Shown: in pieces, positions 21,001 through 27,000 of the stretch | Position numbering within the stretch: position 1 is the first letter of the stretch | How the letters are laid out: every line of letters begins with the position of its first letter | Assembly: GCA_965238005.1 (NCBI GenBank) | Contig: OZ250165.1 | Location: 96,001 to 160,000 of the forward strand | Origin: Longimicrobiales bacterium | Lineage (GTDB): Bacteria > Gemmatimonadota > Gemmatimonadetes > Longimicrobiales > Gaopeijiaceae | DNA length: 64,000 nt | Direction of reading: 5' to 3' | Position numbers: made by a program

Positions 21001-24000
21001 GCGAAGAACATGGGCGACAGGGTCCCCGACAGGGTCCCCTCTCCGACCTTGTCCTGATAGCCCTTGAAAGAGCCCATGGCGGCGGCTCCGTCACCGGACT
21101 TCAACTTCACGATTCCGCGGGCAAGAAGAAGGCCGGGATCGTCCGCGTTCAGCTTCTCGGCCTCCGCGAGGGCGGCGAGCGCCTCGTCGTAACTCCCGAT
21201 AATCTCGAGCGCCAGTGCGCGGTTGCGGTGCAGGGCGTACGTCATCTCCGCAGCCTCGCCCATCTCGTCGAAGTGCACGCTGGCTTCCTGCGCCCGACCC
21301 GCTTTCAGGCTGATGAGGCCGAGGTAAGCCCGAGCCTGCGGATGGTTGGCATCCAGCTCGAGGGTCTTCCTGAACTCCCGAATGGAGTCCTCCATCAGCC
21401 CGGACCGGTAGAACGCCAAGCCGAGGTTCAGGTGCTCCTCCACGGAGCCTTTGGCCTGCGACTCCGCGGCCCGCTTGCCGACTTGGACGGCGAAGCCCGC
21501 TTGTATGAGCCCGTACAGCGCTTTACCCGTGTCGAACTCCACCAACCCGGACTGGTCCACGAGATCGGTCACCGAGCGCTTTCCGTCGATGAGCGGAATG
21601 ATCCGCTGCTGTGCTTCCGTGAGGTCGATCCCTTCCTCCTCCAGGGGGTCCCGCTCCAGGCCGAAGACCAGGTCCATGGACGAGATCTTCCTTTCGATGA
21701 GGCTCCATTCGTCGACGCGACGGGCTCCCTCCATCAGGAGAGCGTCGATGCTGATGGACACCAGCATCAGGTTCTCCTCCGGCCTGACGTCGGGCTGGAA
21801 CTGGAAGGTGCCCTGGTTCCACTGGAAGACTTGGTAGACGGCCTCTTCGATCTGTATGGAGATGTACTTGTCGAGATCCTCTTGAGAGAGGGCTCCACTC
21901 TCCACCAGCAGCTCGCCCAGCTTCTTCCCCCGTTCGTGGGCCTGCGTATCCATGGCCGCCGAGAGCTGATCCCGGTCGATTACCTCGTTCTTCACCAGGA
22001 GATCGCCGAGGCGGTCCGGGCGGTTCACCATGGACGCGTAGACGACCCGACCGTCCTCGAAGTAGATGTGGCCGAAGTTGGCTTGGTCCGTCAGTGACAG
22101 GCAGCCCGTCTTTCCCCCCATGGCCAGAAGCTGGGAGATGTCGGCCAAGCTGACGTCTTTGAGAGAGCCTTCGATCGCCATACTGTCTTACGCTTCCTCT
22201 TCGACTTCCACGATGCGGTCCTCGATGACCGCCCAGTCCCAGACCACGTTTTCCCTCGATGGTTGCCACGGAGTACCCGGATCGACGGTCGCTGGCGCCA
22301 CCGGCGCCGCCTCCTGTGGCTCGGCCATAGGCCCCTCGTGCTCCATGATGATCATGCCGCCCCGATCACCCATGTCGAGCTCCTCGAGGGGGGGCACGAC
22401 CACTTCGCCGACCTTGGGCCGAAGGAACCCGGACCACAGGTCCTCGTCCTGGATGTACTCCGGCGGTGCCTCCTCGAGGTTCAGCGTCTCCGCTCCGGGC
22501 GGTAGCGACTCGGGCGTCGCCTCCACCACTAGACCCATCTCGAAGCGGGAGCTCAGGCGATCGTCGATACCGCTGATCCCCGAGGGCTCCCGATCCGCCG
22601 TAATGAGGATCTTGGCTCCCTTCCGCTTGGACGCCTCGAACAGGTGGAAGAACTCGTCCTGAGCCCGCTCTGTGTCGGAGAGTTCCTGGGCATCGTACAC
22701 CAGGAGGAGATCGACACCCCACCAGCGCTCTCTCCAGGCTCCCGCCACGCCCTCGGAGAGAGCCCGTATGAAGTCCTTCGAGAACTCTTGGGCGGATACG
22801 ATGGCGACGTTGCTGAGCTTGTCGTGCTCCCTGAACGACCGGGCCGTGGCAGCAAGCAAAGCCAAGGGGCCGTCAGGCTGTGGACTCCACAGGAACAGCG
22901 GGTTGTACTCCGGACGCTCTTCCGTGACCAGCTGCTCGGCGGCCTTAAGCGCCACGGCGGGGTAGTGGTCCGTCAGATCCTCCAGGAGGGGTCCCTCGCC
23001 GATCAGCGGGAAGGGACGTACTCGCTCCACTGCCGAAGCCAGCAGGGATTCGGCCTCATCCAGTCGTTCCGGGTCCTTCAAGAGGCCGACGGCGGCCTCC
23101 GGCCACGGATTCCCGACACGGTCGAGGGACTTGGCGATCTGGCGTAGCCGTGTGATGTCCCGCCGGAACTCATCGGCGACCGCCTGTGGATCGGGAGGCG
23201 ACTCGTCGGATTCGAGGAGGAACCGCAGCCGAGTCCCGGAGTAATCGTCTTTCTCGAAGGTCTCCGCCGTCTCCCTGAGCAACCTCCTCCACGGGGCCTC
23301 CTCTCGCTCCACCTTCGTGGCCACTGTCTGGCTCAGCTCCTCCATGAACGAGCCGAACTCGTCCAGGAGCTGCTGGAGCCCTCACTCGCCGGCTCAGTCT
23401 GATGAAGGCCCGGCATGCCCTTGACTTCCTCGACCGTGACTTGCCGGCCCTCGAGCTCCTGGATCGCCAGCACCTTGTTCAGGGCGCCGGCGAGCTCACG
23501 GACGCTCTTGAAGCTGTACTTGGCCAGCGCCTCGGCCACCCCGGCCTCAAAGGTCTGACCACGCTCCTCCGCCTTCTTCCTGAGGATCGCGACCCTGGTT
23601 TCGTACTCCGGAGCCCCGATGTCGACGATCAAGCCCCCGGAGAACCGTGTGACCAGACGCTCGTCGAGACCGTCGATGTCCGAGGGTGGGCGATCGCTGG
23701 CCAGGACGATCTGGCCGCCGGATGCGCTGAGCTGGTCGAGGAGGCGCAGGAGCATCTCCTGAGCTTCCTTCTGTCCGGTGAGGAACTGCACGTCGTCGAG
23801 GAGCAGGATGTGAAGCTCCTCGTACCGCTCCCTCAGCTCGTCCTGAGCGCCCGCCTCGAGGGCCCGCGTCAACTCGTCGAGAAAGACCTCGACGGCCAGG
23901 TAGACCACGCCGTACTCCGGGTGGACCCTGGTGGCGTAATGGGCTATACCGCTGAGAATGTGGCTCTTGCCGAGGCCAGAACCGGAATAGATGAACAGTG

Positions 24001-27000
24001 GATTGTACGATGTCCCGGGAGCGTCGGCTGCCCGCCGCGCTGCTGCAGACGCGAGCCGATTCGCAGGGCCCACCACGAAGCTGTCGAAGGTGAACCTCGG
24101 ATCCAGATCCGTCGCTACCACCGGCTCATACCTGCCTCGCTCATAGTCCCTCTTCCGATCGTGCCCACTCGGCGCACGAGCTCAAGTCCTCTGGGAGCGG
24201 TGCCTCGAAGCGAAGCATCTCCTCGCTGACCGGATGTCGGAAGGAGAGCCGCCACGCGTGTAAGAACTGTCTCGATACCCGCTCGCTCAGCAATTGGGCC
24301 CAACGGCGCCCTCTTCCACCCATCCCTCGCTCCCAACCCACTCCGTACACGGGATCCCCGACAACGGGATGCCCGATGTGGGCAAGGTGAACCCTGATCT
24401 GGTGTGTCCTGCCTGTCTCGAGCGCGACCTCCAAGAGCTCCGCACCCGGCCAACGCTCGACAACCCGAAAGCGGGTGACTGCATGCCGCCCGCCTTCCAG
24501 AACCGCCATGCGCTGCCGGTTGGCCCGATCCCGGCCCACCGGCGCCTCCACCTCGAGCGGCGACTCGGAGAGATGCCCCCAGGAAGCCGCTTGATAGAGA
24601 CGGTTAATCTCACGCCGTTGGAGCGCTTCGGAAAGGGCATGATGTGCACGGTCGGTCTTGGCCACCACCATGAGTCCCGACGTGTCCTTGTCCAGGCGGT
24701 GAACAATGCCCGGCCGGAGCTTTCCACCGATGCCGGAGAGGTCGGTGGCGTGGGCCAACAGGGCATTGACCAACGTGCCTGTCGAGTGTCCCGGGCTGGG
24801 ATGAACCACCATCCCGGCCGACTTGTTCACCACCAGCACCGATGGGTCCTCGAAGAAGATGTCGAGAGGAATGTCCTCGGGCTCAACCGTCAACGGCTCG
24901 GGCACCGGTACGTGAACCTCGATCTCCTGGCCGACCTCGAGCCGCTCCGACTTCCGGGCCACCTGGCCATTCAGGAGTACGCGCCCGTCCTCGACCAGCG
25001 CCTGCACCCGGGTCCGCGACAGGTCCAGATGACCCGCCACGTACGCGTCGAGCCGATCGCCTTCCCGATCTACGGTCAAGATCTCGATGCGCTCCTCGGC
25101 GGTCATTCAGTCCGGTGCCCCGGCGACGATGGGACCACCCGCAGTGTCGACTTCCACTTCTCGGTTGAGAGCGATGACCGCGGCAAGGTCATCGATCTGG
25201 ACGTTCGACGCCGCGTCATAGCCTTCCACGTCACCTTCGGCACTCCCGATAGCCAGCTGGACCGACAGCGTCTCTCCGCAGATAAAATCCCGGTAGTCGT
25301 CGGCCGCGGCCTGGATCTCGTCCGGCCCGAAGATGGCCAGTCGAATCCGGTCGGTGATCTCCAGACCGCCCTCTCTACGCAGGCGCTGAATGCGGTTGAC
25401 AAGCTCTCTGGCCAGTCCCTCCGCACGGAGATCGTCGTCGAGAACGGGATCTAATGCCGCGGTGTAGCCTCCCTCGGAGCGCACCACGAGCTCGCCCTTC
25501 GACTCTTCGGTCACCTCGAGGTCCCCGGCCCCGAGGTGTGTAGTTCGTCCCGCCACCTCGATGGAGACCGGCTCTCCGCTCCGGTACGCTTCCAGAGCGG
25601 CCGGTGGGAGGCTCCGGATCGAAGCGGCCGCGAGCTCGGTGTCCTTCTGGAAGCGAGGGCTGAGGGCCTTGTAGTTGGGCTTCGCGACCAGAGAGACCAA
25701 CCCCTCGGCGGAGGCCAGAAAGTCCACCTCCTTCACATTGAGCTCGTCCCTCAGGAGGCCCAGGATCTCGAGGCGGATCTCCAGGTCACCCGGAACTACG
25801 GCCAAGAGCCTCTGGAGCGGCTGCCGCACGCGGATCTTGACCTCCTCACGAGCCGCCCGGCCCAGGGAGACCATGGCACGGACCGCCTCCATCTCGTCCT
25901 CGAGGGTCCGGTCGCTCCCGTCGACATCCGCATCAGGAAAGGACTCCAGGTGAACGCTCCTTCCCGTGAGCCCATGGTGAATCCAGTCGGCCGCGAACGG
26001 CGTCGCCGGCGCCGCCAGGAGGCAGACCGTGCGGAGCGCCTCCCAGAGCGTCCGGAACGCGGCCCGCGCGTCCGAGTCGTCCGTGTTTCCCCAGAACCGG
26101 GGGCGCGATCGGCGCACGTACCAGTTCGAGAGTTCATGGCTCACGAACTCCCCCAGGGTCCGGTAGGCACGGGTGATCTGGTACGAGTCCAACTCCTCGC
26201 GAACCTCGGCCACCACGGACATCAGGCGTGAGAGAAGCCAGCGGTCCAGGAGGCTGCGGTCACCCGGCACCGGATCGTCGTCCGATGGTGCCCAGTCCTC
26301 GGCGTTGGCGTAGAGGCTGAAGAACCGGTAGGTGTTGAAGAGGGTGTCCAGGAACTTGCGGGAGATCTCCTGGACCGCCACCGGATCGTACCGCTTCGGG
26401 ACCCAGGGGTTGCTGGCCGTGATGAAGTACCAGCGGATGCCGTCGGCCCCATGATCGCCGATGGCGTCCCAAGGATCGACCGTATTCCCCCGGGACTTGG
26501 ACATCTTCTGGCCCTCGGCGTCGAGGATCAGATCGTTGACGATCACGTTCCTGAAGGGAGGCCCCTTCTCCAGCATGGTTGAGATGGCGAGAAGCGAATA
26601 GAACCAGCCCCGGGTCTGGTCGAGCCCTTCACAGATGAAGTCGGCCGGAAAGTGCCGCTCGAACTCGTCTTCGTTCTCGAAGGGGTAGTGCCATTGTGCG
26701 TAGGGCATCGACCCTGAGTCGAACCAGGCGTCGACCACCTCGGGCGCCTTTCGCATGGTGCCGTCACACTGGGCACAGCTCCACGTGAACTCGTCGATGT
26801 ACGGGCGGTGCGGATCGAAGTCCTCGCCCAGAGGACCGGCGCGCTCCTCGAGCTCTATGAAGCTGCCGATCCACTCCAGGTGGTCCTCCTGGGCGTCACA
26901 CACCCAGACCGGAAGCGGAGTGCCCCAGTAGCGATCCCGCGAGAGAGCCCAGTCCACGTTGCCCTTGAGCCACTCTCCCATCCGTCCTTCGCCCACGTCC

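Follow-up and report, generated by a model that had tools for sequence, protein, structure and literature searches.

A tandem DnaA-type ATPase of Gemmatimonadetes is paired with a PATAN-MshEN-TPR protein and has a proposed role in signalling

The window analysed here (the whole stretch of 64,000 nucleotides) carries a gene for an ATPase with two DnaA-type AAA+ domains, and the constant partner of this ATPase is a DUF4388-MshEN-TPR protein, not MglA. On balance, we favor the view that the ATPase is an ATP-switched oligomer that acts with its predicted c-di-GMP-binding PATAN adaptor in pilus or polarity output, where we infer the label 'polarity' from the neighboring genes. The doubled DnaA ATPase core, together with archaeal cores in hosts that are free of DnaA, suggests that a module of the replication machinery has been put to other uses. 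Known DnaA-type cores are those of initiators, Hda and loaders. If our reading is true, the initiator fold would have a new use here, as a core wired to a c-di-GMP/PATAN adaptor in a chemosensory-MglAB operon, and the gene concerned is present in about two thirds of the sampled genomes of a common phylum.

Results

One gene at 24121-22188 on the minus strand is read as two ORFs in the window (Table 1). An earlier note on this DNA had taken these (g00125 and g00124) for a single frameshifted protein of about 650 amino acids, and this was confirmed: both ORFs lie where it placed them, there is a 10-base gap, and the congener G001 encodes an uninterrupted 647-aa protein that is 94% identical to the window's ATPase. 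The 10 bases are present in contigs from three of four sequencing runs; these are contigs of relatives, in which the state of the window's own strain is not readable. We give an even chance to the loss being a real, recent lesion in an operon that is decaying in the genus, as opposed to an assembly error, a question that concerns the window's copy only. The loss has a CA dinucleotide on each side and differs from the 1-base run errors elsewhere in G000, the gene pair is damaged in all three genomes of the genus (the partner in G001; a TAG and a frameshift in G002), and dN/dS is 0.29-0.53 against a median of 0.23. However, other G000 genes carry errors, including a frameshift in a primase-like gene (3 of 103 G001 orthologues disrupted), G002 is noisy (9 of 69), the dN/dS values are well under 1 and lie in the range from the upper quartile to the top decile, and the pair is intact in the sister genus. 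The window's own ATPase copy may be inactive. A promoter and terminator scan at the locus returned nothing above chance level.

Table 1. Features of the ATPase-partner locus (window positions)
Feature	Position	Strand	Basis or remark
Peptidase MA family gene	19597..20637	-	Pfam Peptidase_MA_2; last remnant of the cluster's downstream end
Partner gene, DUF4388(PATAN)-MshEN-TPR	20553..22181	-	starts 6 bases past the ATPase stop
Partner TPR superhelix	20577-21449	-	Pfam TPR
Partner DUF4388/PATAN domain	21702-22172	-	Pfam DUF4388, E 1e-39
Partner tandem MshEN c-di-GMP motif	21852-22013	-	NF053729, 52 bits (cut-off 38)
C-terminal tail (W-x-x-S-R-E-x-V-V-W-x-W ... E-E)	22188..22268	-	conservation; predicted ligand of the partner's TPR groove
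Acidic, proline-rich, variable linker	22269..22520	-	low model confidence; relatives differ by hundreds of residues
Domain 2, DnaA-type AAA+ core lacking the lid, with degenerate Walker A/B in the window's family	22521..22955	-	Pfam Bac_DnaA, E 5e-29
Domain 2 arginine finger	22533-22559	-	kept; box VII also kept in domain 2
Domain 2 ssDNA-binding ISM residues	22719-22772, 22644-22673	-	kept
Short acidic helix and ~95-aa helical repeat (W-x-x-E-G-Y ... F-x-x-D ... L-x-D-P), no Pfam family	23007..23363	-	alignment; AlphaFold helices
Domain 1, complete DnaA-type AAA+ (IIIa and lid)	23414..24121	-	Pfam Bac_DnaA, E 7e-53; motif mapping on E. coli DnaA
Domain 1 sensor 2	23486-23506	-	motif mapping on E. 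coli DnaA
Domain 1 arginine finger	23633-23659	-	motif mapping on E. coli DnaA
Domain 1 sensor 1	23684-23701	-	motif mapping on E. coli DnaA
Domain 1 Walker B	23783-23806	-	motif mapping on E. coli DnaA
Domain 1 Walker A	23963-23989	-	motif mapping on E. coli DnaA
ORF 1 of the ATPase gene	24121-23333	-	262 aa; Bac_DnaA, E 7e-53
ORF 2 of the ATPase gene	23345-22188	-	385 aa; Bac_DnaA, E 5e-29
Frame break, in the linker after domain 1	23373..23374	-	10 bases absent vs both congeners
yggS-divIVA-PNP-ileS-rluA run, upstream context	24141..30963	-	gene order

The protein is laid out as a DnaA AAA+ domain 1, one helical repeat of about 95 amino acids, a DnaA AAA+ domain 2 and a conserved tail. A Pfam search matched Bac_DnaA in both ORFs and found no match to DnaA_N or Bac_DnaA_C at E<=0.01 in either, in agreement with the earlier description of two DnaA-type AAA+ domains without DnaA domains I and IV. 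Domain I (helicase/DiaA binding) is absent, with the protein beginning at the AAA+ module, as is the domain IV helix-turn-helix that recognizes DnaA boxes: the TIGR00362 alignment stops at 333 of 437, and past domain 2 there are only a low-confidence linker and a short tail. In the AlphaFold model of a relative, the fold of domain 1 matches B. subtilis DnaA domain III (8bv3) with an rmsd of 1.8 A over 235 columns, and the repeat corresponds to helices 270-362, for which we found no solved-structure relative beyond coiled-coil noise. This monomer model has a pTM of 0.55 and does not fix the mutual placement of domains 1 and 2. The tail had been reported as a conserved SREKVVWDW ending; the conservation stands (W392, E386 and E401 columns in 43, 41 and 42 of 45 rows), and the window reads SRENVVWDW.

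As the earlier note had also stated, the true dnaA is a separate gene (C1:4433335-4434708); it has 44% and 40% identity to domains 1 and 2. The summed score of the ATPase passes the TIGR00362 (DnaA) equivalog cut-off and databases name such ATPases 'chromosomal replication initiator', so origin and contamination calls can go astray.

We compared ATP-site, arginine-finger and ssDNA residues (E. coli DnaA numbering) across 19 proteins of the window's family. In domain 1, K178, D235, D236, D269, R285 and R334 are each present in 19/19, and equivalents of the ssDNA residues V211 and R245 in 0/19. Domain 2 lacks the lid and has K178 in 0/19, consistent with the degenerate second Walker A previously noted for the genus and its close kin, and all 19 proteins keep R281, R285, I/V211, R223 and R245 there. 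Judged from sequence, domain 1 holds a complete nucleotide site, and domain 2 is ancestrally complete and here without ATP site and lid. With a complete site in domain 1 and the arginine-finger and initiator-specific faces in domain 2, the two domains share out between them the roles of donor and acceptor in a DnaA filament. The ssDNA residues kept in domain 2 leave room for a role in replication or on DNA, as a pure scaffold would not need them. Both AAA+ domains are complete in other orders. One family is left with a single, degenerate ATPase domain, so not every form can depend on ATP turnover.

A profile search found the ATPase gene, in single copy, in at least 201 of 301 phylum genomes (a lower bound, because the alignment profile misses forms without the repeat, such as that of G032), making it much commoner than the 9 of 27 genomes first reported. 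The usual cluster order is cheA-cheC-PATAN-roadblock-mglB-mglA-[ATPase gene]-PATAN-cheR-cheD-cheB-cheW, and two roadblock genes are counted in this cluster. The location previously given for Gemmatimonadetes, between mglA and a DUF4388-TPR gene, holds beyond the window's family (29 of 32 loci) but at none of the 22 loci inside it, where a roadblock remnant persists at 4. In this family the che genes (0/22 loci; cheD in 1/48 genomes) and the cluster mglA paralog (missing at 22/22 loci, with the ATPase gene still there) are lost, and the ATPase gene and its DUF4388(PATAN)-MshEN-TPR neighbor are retained. The statement that mglA lies elsewhere in the genus is right in that none is at the locus, but there was no relocation: the cluster paralog is gone and the remaining mglA is the other paralog (the cluster mglA is 53-56% identical to a recR-linked mglA paralog). 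In three loci of relatives, the remaining che/mgl cluster sits between rluA and the ATPase gene.

The DUF4388-TPR gene adjoins the ATPase gene in all 54 fetched loci, and in 37 of the 45 pairs that are intact the two genes are at most 4 bases apart. Among 121 genomes of the window's family, 83 have both genes, 35 have neither and 3 have the neighbor alone. G000 has the pair, yet we found no che genes, MCPs or cluster mglA there, and these inputs are therefore dispensable. We rejected flagellar output as the main output, as flagellin occurs in only 20 of 125 genomes of the largest family, compared with 121/125 for the ATPase gene (cheD, 103/125). pilM is present in G000, but also in G100, which has no ATPase-partner pair.

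MshEN consists of tandem 24-residue RLGxx(L/V/I)(L/V/I)xxG...LxxQ motifs (PMC5013675). The partner's two motifs score 10/11 and 10/11 (shuffled maximum, 7), and both reach at least 9/11 in 39 of 51 partner orthologues. We modelled the ATPase-partner complex on a one-ATPase form from another family (G027), not on the window's proteins. Each of three runs gave the pair a score of 0.80, while the highest score among 3 controls was 0.00; contact agreement was at least 82% and the partner pLDDT 76. The score mark, which is rough here because our own alignments were used, was attained by 116 of 157 solved pairs and by 2 of 215 mismatched ones. In the modelled interface, tail residues 378-404 lie in partner TPR residues 282-489, and the tail part is exactly the conserved motif. 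Conservation is not raised in the TPR interface columns relative to the rest of the TPR (0.58 vs 0.55, p 0.2). This model and the co-loss of both genes support the prediction that the C-terminal tail docks in the TPR groove of the partner encoded downstream.

Proteins of Thermoplasmata carry, on a single chain, the same helical repeat, a DUF2226 domain and a DnaA core that lacks domain IV, with up to nine matches per genome. Such genomes have Cdc6/Orc1 in 5/5 cases and DnaA domain IV in 0/5; cores of this kind are unexpected in Orc1/Cdc6 archaea and cannot regulate a host DnaA. The ATPase and archaeal repeats match reciprocally, and the archaeal repeat profile retrieves 37 of 52 proteins of the window's family at E<1e-3, with a weak match to the window's own copy (E 0.78, rank 2 of 45268 frames). 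ssDNA position 211 is kept in 26 of 32 archaeal cores, and a fusion of an archaeal core with a pilus-type T2SSE ATPase, seen once, is encoded within a pilin locus. The archaeal DUF2226-like domain resembles PATAN/DUF4388 weakly (HH probability 4%, E 0.01, best of 10 comparisons; DUF4388 E 0.12), and a fold search with the archaeal N-terminal domain gave no clear relative (best Z 5.5). For the same domain, Atlas lists DUF2226 (0.88) and PatA_N (0.84), as leads only.

In trees of DnaA cores (built on 99 and on 51 of the 148 domains extracted, with five added), domains 1 and 2 each form one group. A quick tree parted all domain-IV-less cores from true DnaA (SH-aLRT 90), whereas this split was absent from a careful tree with five further true DnaAs. 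Neither of two origins, one shared with the archaeal cores (p 0.24) and the other by duplication of host dnaA (p 0.35), was rejected in AU tests, and a common origin of the archaeal and bacterial DnaA cores is not shown by these trees.

Discussion

The earlier note proposed polarity signalling rather than replication; it had not covered the chemosensory genes, the c-di-GMP motif, the split of motifs across the two domains or the archaeal proteins. A signalling role over an initiator role is supported by the absence of domain IV, the fixed place in the che/MglAB/PATAN cluster and the archaeal relatives of the architecture, whose hosts have Cdc6/Orc1 and no DnaA domain IV; MglA as a constant partner has to be given up, as the cluster mglA is lost at 22/22 loci of the window's family. 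We propose that a DnaA-derived AAA+ protein, having lost DnaA-box recognition, serves as an ATP-switched, self-assembling adaptor in a surface-motility or polarity pathway. Its flexible C-terminal tail would, as modelled, hold the TPR groove of the PATAN-MshEN-TPR partner. If domains 1 and 2 assemble head to tail in an ATP-dependent way, several tails could be bunched and the PATAN protein so gathered at one place. This assembly may be tuned by c-di-GMP bound to the MshEN motif of the partner and, across most of the class, by CheA/CheY and MglA/MglB of the same cluster. By analogy with cyanobacterial PATAN domains, the output would be the type IV pilus motor; PATAN domains of Synechocystis bind PilB1 and PilC, according to a preprint (bioRxiv 10.1101/2021.06.11.447907).

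A broader reading is possible, though we hold it to be somewhat short of probable. The DnaA AAA+ core may have been exapted in Gemmatimonadetes and Thermoplasmata, once with transfer or twice, as an ATP-switched polymer or ssDNA-sensing signalling module, paired with PATAN/DUF2226 adaptors through the repeat and the TPR-docking tail and connecting type IV pili with inputs from c-di-GMP, chemosensory systems and small GTPases. These non-initiator DnaA proteins would then make up a previously undescribed family that spans bacteria and archaea.

The main rival to signalling is coupling to replication, which we consider unlikely. The ATPase would co-assemble with, cap or inactivate the true DnaA filament, in the way that Hda uses its arginine finger, or compete for ssDNA DnaA-trios, and the PATAN-MshEN-TPR partner would tether it, so that c-di-GMP/chemosensory state or the pole governs initiation. 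Despite its lost ATP site, domain 2 retains I/V211, R223, R245, R281 and R285, which are ssDNA (H/B) and oligomer residues of DnaA (PMC5716108; PMC8287927); both domains are complete in other orders, and the cluster comes after divIVA-ileS-rluA. However, the gene is dispensable, as it was not found in 38 of 121 genomes of the window's family nor in five whole families, and its TIGR03420 (Hda) score of 121.8 bits is under the cut-off of 194.8. A pattern search for the N-terminal sliding-clamp-binding motif gave an internal QEELF helix only. Moreover, the archaeal relatives of this architecture have no DnaA as a target, and the constant neighbors are all signalling genes.

The ssDNA residues, kept in domain 2 and at position 211 in the archaeal cores, could alternatively point to an ssDNA handler at the type IV pilus, in which the initiator-specific surface binds incoming or outgoing ssDNA (competence, DNA feeding) and the PATAN adaptor recruits it. 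The PATAN-pilus link and the archaeal DnaA-T2SSE fusion in a pilin locus would fit, but we judge this distinctly improbable: no competence or recombination gene is among the annotated neighbors, the fusion is a single case, and these residues also sit close to the interface of the filament. ParC and PpfA are positioning ATPases for chemosensory arrays, and by analogy the ATPase might oligomerize and put CheA/CheW at the pole, in keeping with its place amid the che cluster at most loci outside the window's family. Yet the gene and its motifs are kept where che genes, and in G000 MCPs, are missing, and the predicted partner is not a Che protein, which leaves array positioning very improbable. 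An ATP-switched signalling oligomer is the reading that we prefer.

Our literature search retrieved no description of the ATPase or of the archaeal DnaA cores; 2017 mBio work on archaeal KaiC-like ATPases, outside this search, may treat DUF2226/DUF835 architectures. Like DnaA domain III, domain 1 has the fold, Walker A/B, sensor 1, arginine finger and sensor 2, and domain 2 has the ISM residues and arginine finger. Unlike DnaA, the ATPase has a pair of AAA+ modules, lacks domains I and IV, carries an extra repeat and tail and has its motifs split between domains, and it is dispensable beside a separate canonical dnaA. Hda/HdaA is likewise a DnaA-type AAA+ protein without domain IV, and domain 2 resembles an arginine-finger donor, but the ATPase has a tandem architecture and a signalling neighborhood, and the tree shows no sister relation.

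The Myxococcus MglA/MglB, SgmX and Frz module also brings MglA, roadblock and TPR proteins together with a chemosensory system, whereas here all of them are in a single operon, together with CheC/CheD, and the cluster mglA is a second paralog; the parts of the literature examined name no DnaA-type ATPase among the members of the Myxococcus module. For G. aurantiaca, a published supplement (PMC4316618) gives the neighborhood as PATAN>MglA>-PATAN, with the gene between unlabelled. The cyanobacterial regulators PixE, PixG and PilG share a PATAN domain encoded in a chemosensory cluster, but the PATAN protein described here has an MshEN insert and TPRs, no receiver domain and a dedicated AAA+ partner. 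Like the MshEN c-di-GMP receptor domain, its predicted receptor has two 24-residue motifs with a short spacer; it differs in being inserted in the PATAN domain instead of lying N-terminal on a pilus ATPase.

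Frame break in the tandem DnaA-type ATPase gene

The ATPase gene is real and widespread. In the window it consists of two open reading frames, and a Pfam search matched DnaA domains I and IV in neither. Both congeners carry 10 extra bases at 23373/23374 relative to the window; with these, the gene of G001 encodes a single 647-aa protein that is 94% identical. The earlier note had described a split two-domain DnaA-type protein that lacks domains I and IV and is separate from the true dnaA, and both points were borne out.

Features of the ATPase gene, its neighbors and relatives
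Feature	Coordinates	Strand	Remarks
ORF 1 of ATPase gene	24121-23333	-	Bac_DnaA match, E 7e-53
ORF 2 of ATPase gene	23345-22188	-	Bac_DnaA match, E 5e-29
Canonical dnaA, window's genome (G000)	C1:4433335		apart from ATPase gene
Sole mglA, G000	L031:1300-1881 (G000 C1:1390272)		between recR and phosphatidyltransferase-like gene; paralog not linked to cluster
Primase-like gene, G000	C1:162179-163977		599 aa, just outside window; one-base loss, probably assembly error
Partner gene, G001	L033:9473-11090		1-base insertion
Locus of congener G002	L034:3763-8288		noisy assembly; TAG in domain 2; frameshifts in partner, peptidase and ntrC-like genes
Second, shorter DUF4388-TPR gene of cluster	L046:5384-6535 and orthologues		less complete MshEN-like motifs; both halves at least 9/11 in 3/23
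Archaeal pilus locus	L122:5102-13358		archaeal pilin, DUF7289, DnaA-core-T2SSE ATPase fusion, two T2SSF genes

The break may be a real lesion rather than an assembly error. The 10 lost bases are flanked by two CA pairs, each of the genus's three genomes is damaged in the unit formed by the ATPase gene and its partner, and dN/dS, at 0.29-0.53, lies mildly above the median of 0.23. However, 3 of 103 orthologues are disrupted in G000, and because one of these is the one-base loss in the primase-like gene, the assembly is not error-free.

Domain architecture and motif split

Alignments, together with a relative's AlphaFold model (pLDDT 85.8, pTM 0.55), gave the order AAA+ domain 1 with its lid, a short acidic helix, a helical unit of ~95 aa, AAA+ domain 2, a variable, disordered linker and a conserved C-terminal tail. 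The top structural match of the modelled relative was domain III of B. subtilis DnaA (rmsd 1.8 Å).

We mapped motifs onto E. coli DnaA, for which R285 is described as the arginine finger, R281 as box VII and V211/R245 as ssDNA-binding H/B residues (PMC5716108); the B. subtilis counterparts discussed are I190 and R264 (PMC8287927). In 19 intact proteins of the window's family, Gaopeijiaceae, domain 1 always had K178, D235, D236, D269, R285 and R334 and never the V211 and R245 equivalents (0/19). Domain 2 lacked the lid and, in every protein, the Walker A lysine (0/19), confirming the degenerate second Walker A reported for the genus and its close kin, and kept I/V211, R223, R245, R281 and R285 (19/19). 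Domain 2 is complete in other orders (R334 in 14/16) and one family has a single degenerate ATPase domain only; the ancestral form therefore had two full AAA+ modules. Short forms of about 395 aa (L050, L051, L052, L060, L084, L085) have one ATPase domain, often degenerate, and keep the repeat and tail; the form at L049 has both ATPase domains and has lost the repeat.

Distribution and gene neighborhood

A helical-unit profile detected the gene, nearly always in single copy, in 201 of 301 Gemmatimonadota genomes (four of them flagged unpublished). The two largest families had it in 121/125 and 55/70 genomes and the window's family in 12/48, and five families gave no match. Database names of homologues are Longimicrobiales and Gemmatimonadales.

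We compared 54 loci, a non-random set drawn from the best matches. The usual order outside the window's family was cheY-like, cheA, cheC, TPR, short DUF4388-TPR, TPR, roadblock, mglB, mglA, ATPase gene, long DUF4388-TPR, cheR, cheD, cheB, cheW, cheW, peptidase. The previously proposed order mglA, ATPase gene, DUF4388-TPR held on its downstream side at all loci (54/54), but mglA lay immediately upstream at 29/32 loci outside the family and 0/22 inside. Two mglA paralogs occurred in 5/5 tested genomes. G000, which has pilM, indeed has its mglA elsewhere, but this recR-linked copy is the other, non-cluster paralog. The che/mgl cluster is not tied to flagella, because in the largest family cheD is present in 103/125 genomes versus flagellin in 20/125.

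For G. aurantiaca, the supplement of PMC4316618 on MglA neighborhoods gives both mglA paralogs, the second written PATAN>MglA>-PATAN with the ATPase gene unnamed; as stated earlier for its listing, DnaA is absent, here from the text and the three supplement files searched. The claim that the protein is undescribed likewise stands for the literature searched, leaving aside a 2017 mBio article about KaiC-like ATPases of archaea.

The partner protein

In 121 genomes of the family, 83 had both ATPase and partner, 35 had neither and 3 had the partner only, one of these at a contig end; losses of the pair are spread over many genera, among which kin are not independent. The partner's PATAN domain contains a tandem MshEN c-di-GMP motif (NF053729 above cut-off) of the form described in PMC5013675, with both halves in 39/51 orthologues.

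For the orthologous pair of G027, a genome of another family, complex modelling scored 0.80 in three runs, and the highest-scoring of three controls reached 0.00; the mark for this score, roughly applicable here, is reached by 116/157 solved and 2/215 mismatched pairs. Contacts agreed by at least 82% (partner pLDDT 76). In this model the ATPase's last 27 residues, those of the tail motif noted earlier, bind within the partner's TPR groove. Complexes of TPRs with peptides are common among solved structures, and therefore such likeness may have raised the score. Conservation of the interface columns was no higher than that of the remaining TPR columns (p 0.2).

Archaeal relatives

A profile was searched against 1.84 billion representatives; among the matches listed, 34 of 149 new proteins had the helical unit as a tandem repeat. 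Several of these proteins combine an N-terminal domain, 7-9 repeats, a DnaA core and zinc ribbons, and one is encoded on a contig whose title reads uncultured Thermoplasmata archaeon. A profile from 33 archaeal repeats alone matched 37/52 bacterial family proteins (E<1e-3) and nothing else encoded at their loci. This ~98-aa repeat, for which we found no Pfam family or solved relative, builds proteins of up to 3090 aa (P0109, P0117, P0125, P0139, P0154 and others), some with KaiC-like or DUF835 domains.

In that archaeon's phylum, DnaA-type cores occur in 44/301 genomes at E<=1e-15 (41 at E<=1e-21), with up to nine matches per genome. None of the cores examined aligned over E. coli DnaA domain IV, and five tested genomes with a core had Cdc6_C (5/5) and no Bac_DnaA_C (0/5). 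Catalytic residues are kept (K178 32/32, R285 32/32, R334 31/32). Fusion partners of the cores are DUF835, HEAT repeats, zinc ribbons and, in one case, a T2SSE ATPase; this last fusion, at L122, is a DnaA domain carried on a pilus assembly ATPase. Cores without domain IV at L087:3342-10384 and L120-L139 (Thermoplasmata-phylum genomes) are 65-68% identical to Firmicute DnaA across the core, with fusions to DUF2226, helical repeats, DUF835, HEAT, zinc ribbons and fn3; some core genes lie next to rpsB and a Memo gene. For the N-terminal domain the match is to DUF2226 (E 4e-7; 4/9 tested); this domain resembles DUF4388 weakly and occurs in 39/44 genomes with a core versus 44/257 others, in one open frame with the core in 23. 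Trees of the cores neither showed nor rejected a shared archaeal/bacterial origin.

Proposed function

The analysis established the architecture, motif split, gene linkage and co-loss, and modelled the binding of the tail to the TPR region. We lean towards an ATP-dependent assembly that clusters the PATAN partner: subunits would join head to tail, domain 2 supplying the arginine finger for a site in domain 1, and the several tails presented would cluster the c-di-GMP-sensing protein; type IV pili would be the output, and che/MglAB genes, where present, would provide the input. The ssDNA residues kept in domain 2 are the main fact this leaves unexplained. Control of host DnaA or of origin ssDNA appears unlikely, ssDNA handling at the pilus is improbable, and positioning of a chemosensory array is more doubtful still; no che genes or MCP were found in G000.

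By the tests made, the protein is neither DnaA nor Hda. The tandem protein at L033:7523-9466 and the archaeal fusion at L087:3342-7349 pass the TIGR00362 DnaA cut-off, and both are labelled as initiators in public records. In Synechocystis, PATAN domains are described as binding the pilus ATPase PilB1 and PilC (bioRxiv 10.1101/2021.06.11.447907).
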